Shown piece by piece: positions 2,746-63,588 of a stretch of DNA of 64,000 bases. This DNA is from Leucoraja erinacea (lineage: Eukaryota): the NCBI RefSeq assembly GCF_028641065.1, contig NC_073386.1:54932001-54996000 (forward strand), given 5' to 3'. Below the pieces are notes generated by a model. It was not told the DNA's origin. It ran no database searches and was given only the letters and a program-made list of their open reading frames with translations. The position numbers and the translations under genes were made by a program. The stretch's first letter is position 1, and each line of letters begins with the position of its first letter.

Positions 2746-2974
2746 TGATGCCCACAACTACCAATTTCTAACTGCGCTAGAAACTCATCCACTTTGTTCT
2801 GTATACTGCGTGCATTCATATTTAATAACTTTTGTTCAGTATTCAAGACCCCTCTTCTCACATTCGTCCCGAATTTGCCTGACCTTAGAATTATCCCTCC
2901 TTAAACTTTGTGTCCTACTACTTCTGAAGACTTCCTGCACTTTCCTTCCCTTTAAATGCATCCATACATTTCCA

Positions 2975-3077
2975 GACATAAATTTCCGGAAGGATCTTGA
3001 CCCGAAATTTCGTCCATTCCTTCTCTCCAGAGATGCTGCCTGTCTTGCTGAGTTACTCCAGCATTTTGTGTCTACCT
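2975..3077 (+). mobile_element. Short Penelope-derived unit with 14-bp TSD
   Basis: Flanked by tccatacatttcca at 2961-2974 and 3078-3091; ribozyme core degenerate. Confidence 0.75.
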
Positions 3078-3197
3078 TCCATACATTTCCACTTTGTTGA
3101 CCTCACTCCCCCCCACTTTAATTACATTGATAATAGCTTGTAACCACAGGCAAAATATAAGTAATATGTCACAGGACAAACCAATATGTTAACATGT

Positions 3198-3367
3198 GCA
3201 GGAAGGAGTTGCAAATGCTGGTTTACACCACTGATTGATACAAAATGCTGGAGTAACACAGACGGACAGGCAGCGTCTCTGGAGAGAAGGAATGGGTAAC
3301 GTTTGAGATCGAGTCCCTTCGTCTGAAGATGCTGACTATCCCGCTGAGTTACCCCAGCATTTTGTGT
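3198..3367. mobile_element. Fold-back Penelope-derived unit with 16-bp TSD
   Basis: Two inverted halves; flanks caatatgttaacatgt (3182-3197) and caataagttaacatgt (3368-3383). Confidence 0.75.
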
Positions 3368-3704
3368 CAATAAGTTAACATGTCATAACATGTTATGAAT
3401 GTACCCCTGTCCAACAGGGTCTGCTGAAAGCCAGAGTTTGCCAAAATATAGCTGGCCACTAAGCTAAATTACTGTACATTTCTTATATGGGGTCCAACTG
3501 GTGTTTTCTAATAGCTATAGGAATTTATTGGCTTGTTGATTTACTACGTAGATTAAGTGCAGAAATGTTCACAGAAAATCTTTAATGAGCTTTTGTTTTT
3601 TTAAATGTTTCAAAAGGGTGAAGAATTTAGATTCTTAGTACATGAAAACCGAGTGCATGTTTATGCAAAAATTCCCTCAAGAGCCAAAATTGGGTATAAT
3701 AGGA

Positions 3705-3798
3705 GTCTGAAGAAGGGTCTCGACCCGAAACGTCACGCATTCCTTGTCTCCAGAGCTGCTGCCTGCCCGCTGAGTTACTCCAGCATTTTGTGTCTACC
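3705..3798 (+). mobile_element. 94-bp Penelope-derived unit with 15-bp TSD
   Basis: Flanks ttgggtataatagga (3690-3704) and ttgggtgtaatagga (3799-3813). Confidence 0.8.
3707..3734 (+). ncRNA. Minimal type I hammerhead ribozyme core (Penelope-type)
   Basis: CTGAAGA-(A)-GGGTC TC GACCC-GAAAC-GTC: CUGANGA box, stem II, GAAA box, palindromic ACGT stem III and GUC cleavage triplet. Stem I is weak. Confidence 0.65.
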
Positions 3799-3896
3799 TT
3801 GGGTGTAATAGGACATATGTTTGTGATTTGCAAAGGTCCTTTCTATGCTGAAGTGTGCTCTTGCATTAGTACATCTAGCATGCAGTAGACTCTCAC

Positions 3897-28270: not shown

Positions 28271-28667
28271 TCTTTGACTGCGCTTCTGCTCACCATTGTT
28301 CTAGTACAGCTGCTGACAACTAACCTTTAGCTGAAGGGCAATTTGAAGCATCTTGTTTTTTCCTCTCAAAGTAAAAATGAAGTTTGCTTTCGGTGAATAC
28401 ATATTGTCGCTGCTTCCTAAGCTGCATAACAGTAGCCTTGGTTTTGAGGAATGGGCTCGGTATTGCATAATGTTCTGCAATTCAATGTCAGTAATCATTG
28501 CACATTTGTTTCCTGTGCCCCATTCCTGTTCCCTTGTTAGCTCTCTGTGCTTTCCAAATAATTCTCCAATCTGTTTAAATGAAATAAAGACTTGCCATTA
28601 TTTTGATGCATACAGAATACTTCCTATAAGATCACTTTTGAAAAATCAAACCCACTCCGTATCATAA

Positions 28668-29275
28668 AAAGACACAAAGTGCTGGATAAACTCAGCGGGT
28701 CAGGCAGCATCTGTGGAGAACATGGATAGGTGACATTTCGGGTAGGGATACTACTACAGACTGATTATGGTGGGGCCGGAGGGGGGGGGGGGAACAAAGC
28801 TGGAAGACAGAAGCGGCAGGACAAAGCCTGGGAAGTGATGGGTGGATATGGGTGAGGGGTTTTTTTTTAGGCCATGATGAAAAGGCAAAGGGTCTGTGAT
28901 AAAAATAGAAGAGCTGCAAATTGTGAAGTCAGGAAAGGAATGTAGGTGGAAGGGGGGGGAAAGGGAAGAAATGGATCGGAGTCTAGGTGGGATACAAGTA
29001 AGAAAGGAGGGGAGGAAAATGAAGGGGGGAGGAAAGAAGTGCGGACTGCAGATGCTGGAAAATAAATTGTAGACAAAAATGCTGGAGAAACTCAGCAAGT
29101 GGAGGCAGACTGGGCTTAGGTTAGTTATTTAAAATTGGCGAATTCAATGCTCATTTTGTTCGGTTGTAAGCTAACAAGCAGAATGTGAGGTGCTGTTCTT
29201 CCACTTTGCGTGTGGCCTCATTCGGGTAATGGAGAAAACCCAGGAAAGAAAGGTCAGTATAGAAATGGGAAGAGC
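28668..29275 (-). mobile_element. Penelope-like element 3' end including GIY-YIG endonuclease C-terminus
   Basis: Minus translation SHFYTDLSFLGFLHYPNEATRKVEEQHLTF, then after a frameshift MSIEFANFK* (stop 29125-29127), matching the Penelope GIY-YIG C-terminal pattern; followed by UTR and the terminal unit. Confidence 0.82.
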
Positions 29276-33339: not shown

Positions 33340-33475
33340 ACCTTCAGTCTGAAGAAGGGTCTCGACCCGAAACGTCACACATTCCTTCCCTCCAGAGATG
33401 CTGCCTGACCCGCTGAGTTACTCCAGCACTGTGTGTCTATCGGTTTAAACCAGCATCTGTAGTTCCTTCCTACAC
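33340..33475 (+). mobile_element. Penelope-derived unit with intact hammerhead-like core (33349-33376)
   Basis: ctgaagaagggtctcgacccgaaacgtc followed by the conserved terminal sequence. Confidence 0.78.
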
Positions 33476-44910: not shown

Positions 44911-45855
44911 TAATCTTTTCTGCGTTCTTTCCAGGGTTGTGGACCATGGCGAATGTTGGTTGCTGCGAAGAAACATCACTGAAGAAGGGGTTATATGAAG
45001 TGATAGGAAGTGGAGAAAAAAATCCTGAGTTTTAGTTGGAGATAAATATGACCAGGTTTGGGTTGATCCTTTGGGTGTGGTGTCATGACCGGCTGTTGGT
45101 TGAAGAGGAATTATCAGGGTTGCAATAAGTTTGGGAGTGCGACAAATTTGATGTATGGTGGTAGGGAAGGGAGACAGAATTAGCTGGTTTTATAGTGAGA
45201 TGAGAAAATTGTTTACGGGAATGGTTCTATCTTAAATGACACTTATAAAGTCAGGAAAAATGGGGAGAAGGCAGGAACTGATTGTGGATGAACTGATTGT
45301 GGATGATCAGCCATGATCACATTGAATGGCGGTGCTGGCTAGAAGGGCCGAATGGCCTACTCCTCCACCTATTGTCTATTATGTATTGTATTTACAGTGG
45401 GTCCCCAGACCTAAACTGAACAGGGGTTTGATCTACTGCGAGGAATGCCCTACTTTTACCCAAGTATACTCTGCAGAAATGGCAACCAGACATATCCCAA
45501 TATGTATTTGCATTAACAAATCAAATACAAGCAGGATTTGGCATCAATGTTATGATGTTAGGAGTTCAATAAAATTCTGAAGTGTGTCTCAGATAAAGGT
45601 TGTATAATTGAATAGAATTTGTAGCTTATAACTCCTACAAATCACTATAAATTCTGGGACCAGAACGACAATTTAACATTAAAAGATGTTACTAAAGTAT
45701 TTCTGGACCTGTTTCTATCTAGAGCTAGTCATCCAATCGCCTAATCCCTGTTCTAAACTCTAGCTCTGACTTGATTCCTGTAAAAAGGCAGCTCCTTCCA
45801 AAATCATGACTAACAACTGCTGCTGGAGATTGTACCTTATCAAGGATGAATTATT

Positions 45856-46040
45856 TAGGAAGGAACTGCAGATGCCGGTTTACACCACAGATAGACACAG
45901 AATGCTGGAGTAACTCAGTAGGACAGATAGCATCTCTGGAGAGACCAGTCTGAAGAAGGGTCTTGACCCGAAACGTCACCCATTCCTTCTCTCCCGAGAT
46001 GTTGCCTGCCCCGCTGGGTTACTCCAGCATTTTGTGTCTA
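45856..46040. mobile_element. Fold-back Penelope-derived unit, intact core at 45950-45977
   Basis: ctgaagaagggtcttgacccgaaacgtc; degenerate TSD tcaaggatgaattatt/tcatggctgaattgtt (13/16). Confidence 0.75.
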
Positions 46041-47544
46041 TCATGGCTGAATTGTTGGTGGATAAAATATGTTACTATTCTCAGAGATAGAATGCCAAGG
46101 TTTTGATTTGGGTTAGTAAGGACTGGGGTACTAACTTTACTCACATTAGCAAATTCTAACATCCTATACTTTGCTAACACTACTTGTACAAAATGATGGG
46201 TTAATTAAACCTTGAACGATAAAGGCCCAGTTTGCAAAACTGGCACTGAAAGTATGCACACATTCAGTTGGTGAATGAATGTCCTCATCATAAACAAGAA
46301 CAGCACCTGCAAGGAAAAAAACCCTTGCATACAGCTTGTACAGAGGGCAACCCACTTTATCTCATCCTTACACATGTTAGGTCACTTCCCTCCTACCTCC
46401 TACATACATGCAAACTGATGCCAAAAAATATGACGTGTTTTCAAGCTAAAATAAAAGACCACTTTATAGAAAATAAGAGAATTTATCGAGCTTATTGTGC
46501 AATACTTTTTTCAGTGCCTCCTTATCAGTACAATTCATCAGTACTAAATGCCAGCGGTCCCCCAATTGTTAGATGAGAGTCTAACAAATCCAAAAGAATA
46601 CTATGTCCTACATATAGTAACTCCAGTTTGCAAAGACGGAAATAGGCAGGCACATATTCAACAATGCTAATGGTCTGCTTTGAAAGTTTGCCCTTTATAT
46701 GAAAATTGCCAGCAAGTTACATCAACATTGTTTGTTCAGCTGTTCTTTGCCAAATTGTACAAATAACAGGTTGTAAGTTACAACCTTCTTCCTGGCATCA
46801 AATCCTTCCTTTTAAAAAGTAGTAAAGGAAAATAGGGTGAGTGTAAAGATTAAAAATGAGCTACTTGTAATAGTCCCATTAGTGTGTTTTAAGAACTAGC
46901 AGCAAATTTGAAAAATATGTAATTTCTGACTGTGAGGAAATGCCAACGAAGGACAACTAATACAAAGTTACTTCCTTCCTCTATGATACACGTCAAGAAA
47001 GAGCTCACCAAGCTAAATAGGTACTGAAAAATGGAAATGAAAATAGTGGCAGTACAAAACAGATCAATCTACATTTGAAATAACAAGACAGAACAACATC
47101 AGAAGATTCTCATGAAAACTGTTAATCAGTGTTTCTCTTTGATTTGTGGACTATTACGCAAAGTGATTTGTTTCAGATTTTTAAGAATTTTTGTTTTAAA
47201 TAAAGGCAGCTGAAGAACATGTTGGCAAGTATAATTGAAGAAATAAGAACAAGAAAATTCACTATACATCAATTGAATAAAATAACTGGCATTTATTGCA
47301 AAGGTATTCAAACATTGATGATATTCAAGCCATGAAAGAACTTGCACAGCTCGAATACCATCATGGGCAATGAGCCTGTCAGGGCGATATCTGGCTATTA
47401 TCTCTTCCCGATAAGCCTAATGCCTTTTCAACCCATTTTGAACAGGCAAATAAAATGACACCCTGACATTTTCCCTCATCTCCTGCTGGCTCTGTCCCAC
47501 TCATCTCGGTGGCAGAAGAAAATTGGCCCGCCAGGATGGAGTCC

Positions 47545-51040: not shown

Positions 51041-51503
51041 CCATCACAGTCTATCTGAGCCAAACGCTGAGTTAGTGTGGCAAGCGGCTGCGAGAGGCAG
51101 TGCACTGCCCCGACGGTGGAGTGGGCTGCTGGAGGCCCTGCAGCAGCATGGGACTCAGCTGGACCAGAGGCCAAGCTCGTGGATCGGATGCGGCCTACAG
51201 CAGTGGAGGACATCATGGCTGTACTTGGCCAGGTCGACCCTGCAATGCCGCCAGGGCAATGGGCTTCATGGTCAGGTCAGGATCCCTGCACCTATAACAA
51301 CTGGAAATTGCTTGAAAATGTCACCAAACTGGGGACTATGCATATTTCCTCAGTGTATTACTGCTGTAAACTTGTACTGTAACTGAGGTGCTTATCTAAT
51401 ATGTATCTCAGTGCTAATGCAAAGTGATACTTGTACTGATCTGTATACTAAAATGAATTTCACTGTACCTTTGTACATGTGTCAAATAAAGTACCATACC
51501 AAT

Positions 51504-51600
51504 GAGTCTGAAGAAGGGTCTCGACCCGGAACGTCACCCATTCCTTCTCTCCATAGATGCTGCCTGTCCTGCTGAGTTACTCTGGCATTTTGTGTCTACT
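51504..51600 (+). mobile_element. 97-bp Penelope-derived unit with 8-bp TSD
   Basis: ataccaat at 51496-51503 and 51601-51608; GAAA box mutated to GGAA. Confidence 0.75.
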
Positions 51601-52534
51601 ATACCAATAAAACAAAATCCCATACCATGATTGTCCTAAACTAACCCTAATCTGCCCAACTGATTTAATTCAAAATTCTCATTATTATCTACAATCTCTA
51701 TTCAATTGTGTCCATGGTCTCATTCTTGGTGTGCCCTGCAGCTCATCCTGAAATACATGCTGCTCCAACTTTTGACATTGAAAATATGTTTATTTACCTT
51801 TATTTACTTTATTCAAGCCGTATTACCAGTAATATTTTTCTGCCTTAATATCACTCATTGTAACTCCCTTCGTAAAATTCACTTTTAAGACCATCATCAA
51901 AACACAACCTTCAGAGCACACTCTTGCTATCTCTCCCAATCTATTTCTGGCTCACCATCTATCTTCACCCACTTGTGAATCGACTTTTAACTTTTGCATA
52001 GTGACCCCAATGTTAAAGAGTATTAAGCCAGGTTTCATCCTAGAATCGCTACGGGACCAACACAAACAAAGTTCCAATCCTCATTAATTCCCTGTCCAAT
52101 ATACAGTGATTTAGGTGAGCATGATTGAGAAGTATATAAGTCTGGTTACACAATTGGAATGGAAGAGCAGAATGCCTTTGCAGACAACACAGTAGTTTAC
52201 TTGTTGGGACAATTAATGAATGCGCACTTAATGCAGTCAATTTATAAAAGGCATTGTGGAACACACACAGCCAAAAGCCACTGCATATTTGCTGCCAACT
52301 CACGAATCAATCCTTTTCAGCTGATTCTTTCCCACCGTTGTCTAAAACATTTCCCATTACCAAACAAATTGTTTTCAGATGCTATGTTCCACACAGCTTC
52401 CTTAGAAACCATTTATTTTATATTAGGAATTGTGGCTTTCTTCAATAGAAAACTCCAGCTGTGAAAATGCTACATTTCTGGCATATATTATACCCCATTA
52501 ATAGGGTTCAACAAACCCTTTCTCGCTGAAAAAT

Positions 52535-62895: not shown

Positions 62896-63341
62896 TCACC
62901 CAATCTTAGGCAATTAGTAAATATTTCAGCAATAACAAGGTCTTTTCTTAGAGTCCAAGGGGGCAATCACAGGAAGAAAGAGCTGGAGTGACTGAATAAT
63001 CTGTCTTTTGAATTGACCATTTATGCTTGACTGACTCCTCTTCCCGTAAAACCCTATAATGCCATATAGTTTACAATAATTTCTTCACCACAGATCCCAG
63101 CTGAACATCAGCGTGTGCTTTTTATACATAGCAATTATTTTTCCATCAATTATTAACTTTGCAGTCAAGAGGTGAAGCATCATGGAGGTTTGCGGGATAA
63201 AGCCACCAAGAAGTGGGATTTATTTTTGGTAGTTTGAACTAATATGCTGCTCTTACTCGGACTGAATTACATGGTATTTCTCAAAAGCAGATTCAGTACC
63301 TCCAGTGTTTGCATGTCCTTTGACCAATGTCATTACCATGC

Positions 63342-63588
63342 CGAAGATAGACACAAAATGCTGTTGTAACTCAGCGGGACAGGCAGCATCTCTGAAGATA
63401 AGGAATGGGTGGCATTTTCGGGCTGAGACCATTCTTCAGACCAATGAACCTTCTTCAGACCCTTCCTCAGTCTGAAGAAGGGTCTTGACCTAAAACGTCA
63501 CCCATTCCTTCTCTCCAGAGATGCTGCCTGACCCGCAACATTATGCGTCTATTTTGGGTGTAAACCAGCATCTGCAGTTCCTGCCCAC
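63342..63588. mobile_element. Fold-back Penelope-derived unit with 12-bp TSD
   Basis: tcattaccatgc at 63330-63341 and 63589-63600. Confidence 0.78.

Follow-up and report, generated by a model that had tools for sequence, protein, structure and literature searches.

The most frequent short repeat in the 64,000-nucleotide stretch of Leucoraja erinacea DNA analysed here (the window) is the hammerhead-plus-tail segment of a Penelope-like retrotransposon (PLE), that is, the pseudo-LTR (pLTR)/5'UTR of the element itself. We consider it quite probable that the short copies of this segment, termed stubs below, are by-products of the copying of full-size PLEs and not a self-propagating family; some stubs may be re-mobilised in trans. 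The class of element is already known, and the new part is the sharp 5' end of the stubs, together with the pairing of long and short copies at such a scale.

A profile search found 31 copies of the repeat in the window, in agreement with a preceding sequence-only reading, which had put their number above 15. The hammerhead motif gave nine matches at three or fewer mismatches, as compared with none in 100 shuffles, and an Rfam scan of the window returned nothing at gathering score. The main copies in the window, with their target-site duplications (TSDs), are as follows.

2961..2974, plus strand: left TSD of a degenerate solo stub, 14 bp, exactly equal to 3078-3091
2975..3077, plus strand: degenerate solo stub with short 3' end, broken hammerhead core and about 14 filler bases at the 5' junction
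3078..3091, plus strand: right TSD of the degenerate solo stub, 14 bp, exact
3182..3197, plus strand: left TSD of a head-to-head pair, 16 bp, one mismatch to 3368-3383
3198..3367, arms on both strands: head-to-head pair, minus arm 3325-3198 with long tail, plus arm 3314-3367 with short end
3368..3383, plus strand: right TSD of the head-to-head pair, matching 3182-3197
3690..3704, plus strand: left TSD of an intact solo stub, 15 bp, one mismatch to 3799-3813
3705..3736, plus strand: predicted minimal type I hammerhead motif, from its sequence and the PLE-hammerhead architecture described in the accessible part of PMC4209133
3737..3798, plus strand: PLE 5'UTR segment up to the first (short) 3'-end site, the segment that precedes the start codon in loci L153 and L156
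3799..3813, plus strand: right TSD of the intact solo stub, 15 bp, one mismatch to 3690-3704
28661..29224, minus strand: 5'-truncated PLE remnant with decayed GIY-YIG C-terminus, pyrimidine-rich UTR and hammerhead-plus-tail end at 28762-28661
33346..33475, plus strand: solo stub of the long form (~130 bp), core intact
45854..46049, arms on both strands: head-to-head pair, long minus arm and short plus arm with intact core; TSD of 15 bp, two mismatches
51505..51596, plus strand: solo short stub, TSD 51492-51503 / 51597-51608
63339..63586, arms on both strands: head-to-head pair, short minus arm and long plus arm; 12-bp TSD

In the motif at 3705-3736, a stem I of 2 bp (3705-3706 with 3735-3736) would be followed by CUGAAGA at 3707-3713, an extra A at 3714, stem II at 3715-3726, GAAA at 3727-3730 and a palindromic ACGU stem III, with predicted cleavage after 3734. 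The short 3'-end site that closes the segment at 3737-3798 is presumably a priming site of reverse transcription. The motif copies given earlier at 3707-3734, 33349-33376 and 45950-45977 are present exactly as written. Among the four copies quoted there as intact minimal examples, only that at 3707 proved to be a solo 95-bp copy: the copy at 33349 is of the longer 130-bp form, that at 45950 is an arm of a head-to-head pair, and that at 73-99 on the minus strand is one base short in loop II and retains about 80 bases of PLE UTR. The direct repeats reported at 3690/3799 (15 bp, one mismatch), 51496/51601 (8 bp exact, 12 bp with one mismatch) and 2961/3078 (14 bp exact) are real. The pair at 3198-3367, absent from the earlier reading, is a third insertion located between the stubs at 2975 and 3705, and the PLE remnant at 28661-29224 (minus strand) encloses a second stub fragment. 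Among the joints listed for contigs of four other organisms (X3, X4, X8 and X13), none was an empty-site joint for the stub at 3705-3798; these contigs enter the stub by 3-22 bases from both flanks, below the 31-base bridging rule, and there are hints that it is an old insertion common to other organisms.

A sample of 1 Mb was drawn from the 2.19-Gb assembly: 35 contigs contributed 100 pieces of 10 kb each, placed at round coordinates. In this sample the profile search found 501 copies per Mb (~0.5 per kb), covering 46,994 of 1,000,000 bases (4.7%), which by extrapolation corresponds to about one million copies in the whole genome. The exact 23-base core occurs 29,971 times genome-wide, and an intact hammerhead core was kept in 53 of the 501 sampled copies. 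With respect to orientation, 34 of the 501 stood in direct tandem behind another copy and 172 were head-to-head. The 274 sampled copies that include the hammerhead start comprised 101 solo, 91 inverted, 70 UTR-class (five of them chance neighbours of another repeat) and 12 tandem copies. Solo copies (n=103) were short in 50 cases, long (~132 bp) in 39 and of other size in 14; the size of ~95 bp proposed earlier thus describes one of two size classes. Clustering yielded six subtypes; in five of these, some copies carry a pyrimidine-rich UTR particular to the subtype, and the remaining copies lack one. The youngest variant was sampled by an exact tail-motif pattern, as 30 loci taken in genome order.

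The core consisting of CUGANGA, stem II, GAAA and UH was kept in all six subtype centres, with a stem II of 4-5 pairs, the stem III palindrome ACGU and a stem I of 2 pairs, as the earlier caveat of a ~2-bp stem I in most copies had it. Changes in stems I and II were of the A-U to G-U type in subtypes 3 and 5, and one pair each departs in the older subtype 4. The presence of core and palindromic stem III in every centre supports the earlier assignment of the motif, as judged from its sequence, to the minimal type I hammerheads of PLEs. In the predicted folds of both monomer and dimer the hammerhead was not the minimum, a result that is uninformative for such motifs. Column change in the core versus other columns was 0.056 versus 0.091 in stubs, and 0.054 versus 0.077 in UTR-bearing copies. 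Selection on the stubs was considered and rejected, since the constraint on the core is equal in UTR-bearing copies and hence reflects parent variation. Solo and head-to-head stubs have no tandem partner with which to form a dimer, and hammerhead cleavage is probably needless for making stubs.

As far as the accessible text of Cervera and de la Pena (2014, PMC4209133) goes, the motif resembles the minimal PLE hammerheads in its extra base after A9, its G10.1-C11.1 pair and its palindromic helix III, and its 2-bp helix I is as in Penelope of D. virilis. PLE hammerheads are described there as having low activity even as dimers, and the PLE motifs as lying mostly alone, in some cases on opposite strands, and as "probably related to truncated PLEs". 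The same portion of that paper names no cartilaginous fish and leaves ends and TSDs unmapped, whereas here both ends and the TSDs are mapped and the ribozyme is predicted.

The parentage is seen in the neighbourhood of the copies. Translation of the sample revealed decayed GIY-YIG C-termini directly upstream of many copies, and in loci fetched for the GIY-YIG domain the hammerhead-plus-tail followed shortly 3' of the ORF in nearly all; over all fetched DNA, the hammerhead was located 78-242 bases 3' of the PLE ORF end in 77 of 98 ORF ends. L153 and L156 are full-length partial tandems with a pLTR holding the hammerhead, and run in the order truncated upstream copy, hammerhead, tail, start codon, reverse transcriptase (RT), cysteine linker, GIY-YIG, UTR, hammerhead and tail; the start codon follows some 170 bases after the hammerhead begins. 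This layout indicates that the repeat serves both as the 3' end of PLE insertions and as the 5'UTR of the ORF. The 1052-aa frame of L153 matched Pfam RVT_1 (E 7e-6) and GIY-YIG (E 0.009), both below the curated cut-off; P0001 carries RT and endonuclease (EN) motifs in a single ORF, RT preceding GIY-YIG, and a C-x4-C-x2-C cysteine motif in the linker between them. The parent PLE would accordingly be named Neptune type, a clade set by the linker motif alone, and the source of this criterion, a Zn-finger-like cysteine motif between RT and EN (PMC8557442, in the part available), gives it as common to Nematis.

The locus L153:697-5545 (minus strand) belongs to a very young PLE family, many copies of which are 99-100% identical over 90 aa of RT, and an RT-core search found open frames of up to 1052 aa in this family, which is probably recently or still active. 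Frame breaks were seen in the N-terminal part of the L153 and L156 frames.

TSDs showed that stubs are inserted units. Direct repeats scoring at least 8 flanked 38 of 97 solo copies, as compared with 2.5% of 482 shuffled pairings, an enrichment that bears out the earlier view of stubs as insertions and not decayed debris. At the stricter score of 9, repeats were found at 32/98 solo copies (control 4/293), 25/75 pairs (control 1/222), 4/103 internally starting copies and 11/64 UTR-bearing copies (control 3/186), at least three of these 11 being element-internal repeats and no TSDs; controls were at 0.5-1.6%. In the youngest set, counted with L250 excluded, an exact TSD of 9-18 bp was present at 18 of 25 loci; two further loci belong to a single inverted insertion whose TSD is 14 bp long, so that 19 of 24 events have a TSD. 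The claim that each copy has its own TSD therefore holds for 38/97 solo copies of mixed ages and for 19/24 of the youngest insertion events, and not for all. TSD length overall was 8-18 bp; TSDs of 8-10 bp are on record for PLEs in the available part of PMC3846280. The TSDs around stubs imply insertion at stub size. Since TSDs also surround long PLE copies, the youngest flanked events including copies of 0.9 and 1.1 kb, a TSD does not single out a separate element.

The 5' ends were sharply focused. About 45% of copies begin 1-4 bases before CUGA, which is some 15-20 times the truncation rate farther upstream. Of 145 non-inverted copies, a fraction of 0.89 still matched the parent at -1 and 0.54 at -4, and 62, 50, 33, 20, 13 and 5 copies extended to 25, 50, 100, 200, 300 and 500 bases, respectively; the loss was thus ~17% per base at -1 to -4 versus ~1% per base at -25 to -100. 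This peak differs from the uniform spread along the parent that the sequence-only reading had set out as the mark of simple truncation. Judged by eye, the 25 events of the youngest set began at -1/-2 in 11 cases, between -7 and +2 in four, at about -15 in two and inside the element in two, and six extended at least 280 bases upstream. Genome-wide, position -12, a pyrimidine in most parents, is a purine in 10,126 of the 29,971 exact cores, implying that roughly 55-65% of exact-core copies are already without UTR at this position; among 100 purine cases listed, a hand count of the bases at -1 to -4 gave T 82, G 78, A 64 and C 48. Junctions often contained filler or re-copied first bases of the hammerhead. 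There was no peak of 5' ends at the predicted cleavage site (7/256 starts at columns 31-35) and no excess of a cap-G signature (G at -4 in 8/44 solo copies). The pile-up likely marks the start of the element's RNA or a stop of copying. Of the 30 best copies with an ORF start, 21 continue past the hammerhead into UTR as partial tandems, one begins at it and eight begin farther downstream; some tandem arrays also connect the ORF-start region with positions within the UTR. The hammerhead start therefore cannot terminate all templates, and one has to assume two populations of them.

In all five UTR types the 3' end of the UTR consists of a long pyrimidine tract and TCAG; TCAGT reads as initiator-like, and TCAG also as a 3' splice site abutting helix I, as in the D. 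virilis intron. For the cause of the end, an RNA 5' end, produced by a start at the conserved TCAGT or by trimming to a protein-bound hammerhead, stands at about an even chance in our estimation; a stop of the reverse transcriptase at the folded hammerhead is a serious candidate of somewhat lower probability, and a splice-acceptor effect is rather improbable. The last is only a minor option because none of the 77 ORF-end-to-hammerhead distances was short enough for a spliced copy (minimum 78), and stubs are not preceded by any common exon. Contigs of four presumed RNA runs, which are blind to starts and expression, contained no clean splice or circle joint at the pLTR-ORF junction. At L035:5019-5196, two repeats of 42 bp, both from the hammerhead's 5' part, stand before a complete stub, an arrangement that resembles repeated re-copying of a template start.

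In the profile alignment, 3' ends were bimodal, at columns ~91-107 and 126-133, 37-40 bases apart. In the 30 loci of the youngest variant they mostly fell exactly at +96 or +136, both AC-rich, and overlapped the TSD by 1-5 bases. The available text on the anole Poseidon element PAc (Frangieh et al. 2024, PMC11167929) traces the PLE tail to two AC-rich internal priming sites; the two 3'-end sites here are the PLE tail, and correspond to such sites as described there. Among 92 head-to-head pairs, 62 joined a long and a short arm, four were long+long, six short+short and 20 unclassifiable; long+short pairs hence made up 62 of 72 classifiable pairs, as compared with about half expected with independent ends. 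Only four tail-to-tail pairs were seen. By analogy with the anole element in vitro, the bias would fit priming of both target strands at different sites. Junctions at which an inverted arm makes a long stem I were rare, with 2/92 pairs beginning at column 32.

In the mechanism proposed here, the PLE protein would nick the target and start cDNA synthesis internally on the RNA template, at one or the other of the two AC-rich sites (~95 and 135 bases 3' of where the hammerhead begins); both target strands would often serve as primers. Internal priming has been demonstrated in vitro for the anole element in PMC11167929, which also describes extension of both target strands, no need for hammerhead cleavage and no reads ending at the cleavage site. 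The cDNA would end at the 5' edge of the hammerhead, and may be joined to the target or to a second cDNA via microhomology of 1-5 bases. A more specific version, which we put forward tentatively and regard as doubtful, is that stubs are integrated strong-stop cDNAs: the RNA would start at the first hammerhead base and be terminally redundant, the segment would act as a retroviral R region, and long+short pairs would be failed transfers. A dimeric enzyme might then prime both target strands via the R-like segment, switch template and rebuild the pseudo-LTR. If this were true, hundreds of thousands of stubs and pairs would constitute a fossil record of PLE end regeneration.

Mobilisation by the Penelope enzyme, as suggested in the sequence-only reading, is supported by the PLE parentage, the PLE-type 3' ends and the TSDs. 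Its further suggestion of a separate, non-autonomous, retrozyme-like element found no support, since the segment is the PLE's own pLTR/5'UTR and TSDs flank long PLE copies too. The genomic unit also begins before the ribozyme, not at the cleavage site, and copies are solo or head-to-head, mostly not tandem. Whether stubs nevertheless propagate in the manner of a SINE, with the hammerhead start serving as transcription start of stubs or UTR-promoted truncated copies, which the PLE protein would then copy in trans, was weighed against several observations, and we judge this unlikely. The 5' ends are sharp and at a single site even though long ORF-bearing cDNAs pass through it, the stubs retain the inferred priming sites, PLE pLTRs can mobilise unrelated DNA in trans (PMC3846280, in the part available), and in the youngest variant stubs outnumber ORF-start loci by over ten to one: an ORF-start pattern, which left out one of four last letters, gave 194 matches (~200 sites), as compared with 3,116 matches of the tail motif. 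The unit-length insertion, TSD and defined 5' end are present as well, and are equally expected of the short products of an autonomous element. However, the age of stubs follows the parent subfamily, divergence of solo and UTR-bearing copies being 0.087/0.079 in subtype 2, 0.042/0.039 in subtype 3 and 0.147/0.165 in subtype 0; subtype 1 stubs were older than their UTR-bearing copies (0.155 vs 0.098), and copies of subtype 5 are few. Tested column by column, alleles specific to one class were absent from subtypes 2, 3 and 5 and numbered one each in 0 and 1, and allele sharing among stubs was not raised in subtypes 0, 2, 3 and 5; these tests used 100-bp sequences and 5-25 UTR-bearing copies per subtype, and thus have little power against many weak stub masters. 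The excess sharing among subtype 1 stubs (p 0.003), by eye without a common haplotype, is in favour of a SINE-like family. Distant TSDs, which would mark carried 5' flanks, were not in excess (3/55 vs control 7/163). Furthermore, ORF-start sequence was present in 2 of the 11 youngest hammerhead-start events despite its rarity, which indicates that ORF-bearing elements supply at least part of the templates, consistent with stubs as by-products of full-size copying.

A true retrozyme cycle, in which tandem units self-cleave as dimers and circularise, and the circles are reverse-transcribed and inserted, appears highly improbable. The hammerhead has the palindromic stem III, and animal retrozymes derive from PLE pLTRs (bioRxiv 10.64898/2026.07.22.740005, in the part available). 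Against this, direct tandem copies are far fewer than head-to-head ones (34 and 172 of the 501 given above), two intact cores occurred in 1/18 close same-strand neighbours, the cleavage site lacks a 5'-end peak, ends are fixed without circular permutation, and stem I is of 2 bp without loop-loop contacts. Some resemblance is seen at L251:680-3150 (G000:C1:24092480-24094950), a 14-unit array copied from the 5' part of the youngest PLE, in which some units have complete hammerheads and others begin anew 3-4 bases past the predicted cleavage site. Its units end at ~+215 to +225 in the ORF start and restart at the hammerhead start (203-209 bp) or the post-cleavage site (177 bp); the +215-to-hammerhead junction was seen again at L238/L239. 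This array could stem from repeated template jumps, hint at cleavage in vivo or mark the onset of a retrozyme-like array. Equally remote is random 5' truncation followed by decay, with the pile-up as an artefact of a fast-changing C-rich UTR. UTR-bearing copies do drop off smoothly with length, and the rarity of TSDs in internally starting copies (4/103) indicates that decay contributes; however, the TSD abuts the hammerhead start in the near-identical young copies L223, L236, L240, L246 and L249, and the step in per-base loss described above is not that of random truncation.

Among known systems, as far as the accessible parts of PMC8557442 and PMC3846280 go, the element resembles Neptune-type EN+ PLEs in its RT with C-terminal GIY-YIG, linker cysteine motif, partial tandem pLTR, heavy 5' truncation, inverted 5' copy and 8-18-bp TSDs. 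The spacing of ~37-40 bases between 3' ends recalls the optional 30-40-bp tail at one end of EN+ PLEs in the descriptions available. According to the available portions of PMC8557442, PMC2377424, PMC6765202 and PMC6155905, such partial tandems, the inversion of 5' copies, tails at one end only and 5' truncation are all usual in PLEs. Unlike Neptune-type PLEs as described in those portions, the shortest products dominate here and begin at one site. The anole PAc belongs to another clade, and in its accessible description the ORF starts inside the hammerhead, whereas it starts ~170 bases downstream here. Similarly, the repeat shares with animal non-LTR retrozymes (PMC7229834; bioRxiv 10.64898/2026.07.22.740005) its non-coding nature, type I hammerhead, PLE-pLTR origin and PLE-dependent spread. 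Retrozymes are defined in the available text of these papers (Cervera and de la Pena 2020; Li, Clavereau and Pollet 2026) by tandem 150-450-bp units, consecutive complete ribozymes and circular RNAs; the 2026 preprint includes one chondrichthyan species. The stubs, in contrast, stand alone or in head-to-head pairs, and their ends are fixed. The sampled copies do not conform to this tandem pattern, in view of the 34/501 and 1/18 counts above, although a few local arrays such as L251 approach the definition as rare exceptions. In the literature covered (full texts, few subscription papers), neither the repeat in cartilaginous fishes nor a 5'-end peak at the hammerhead start is described.

With about a million end-products, a very young subfamily and long ORFs, both cDNA ends can be mapped to the base in this system. 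According to the data, the first bases of hammerhead stem I should coincide with either the start of the RNA or a halt of the RT; the long+short pairs offer natural support for two-site priming on both target strands. In annotation, ~5% of the genome is best assigned to PLE ends and should not be labelled a new SINE or retrozyme.

Several further arrays were noticed. ORF-start arrays with irregular periods of ~190-400 bp were found at G000:C9:41121083-41124279, C1:131858659-131859223, C7:47494193, C10:849907 and C12:25314113. At L067:1983-6001 (minus strand), open stretches of more than 1,000 codons in two frames adjoin a PLE fragment, and are probably a low-complexity tandem repeat. L252:410-650 (minus strand) consists of three 83-bp tandem units of the tail region only, with no hammerhead.
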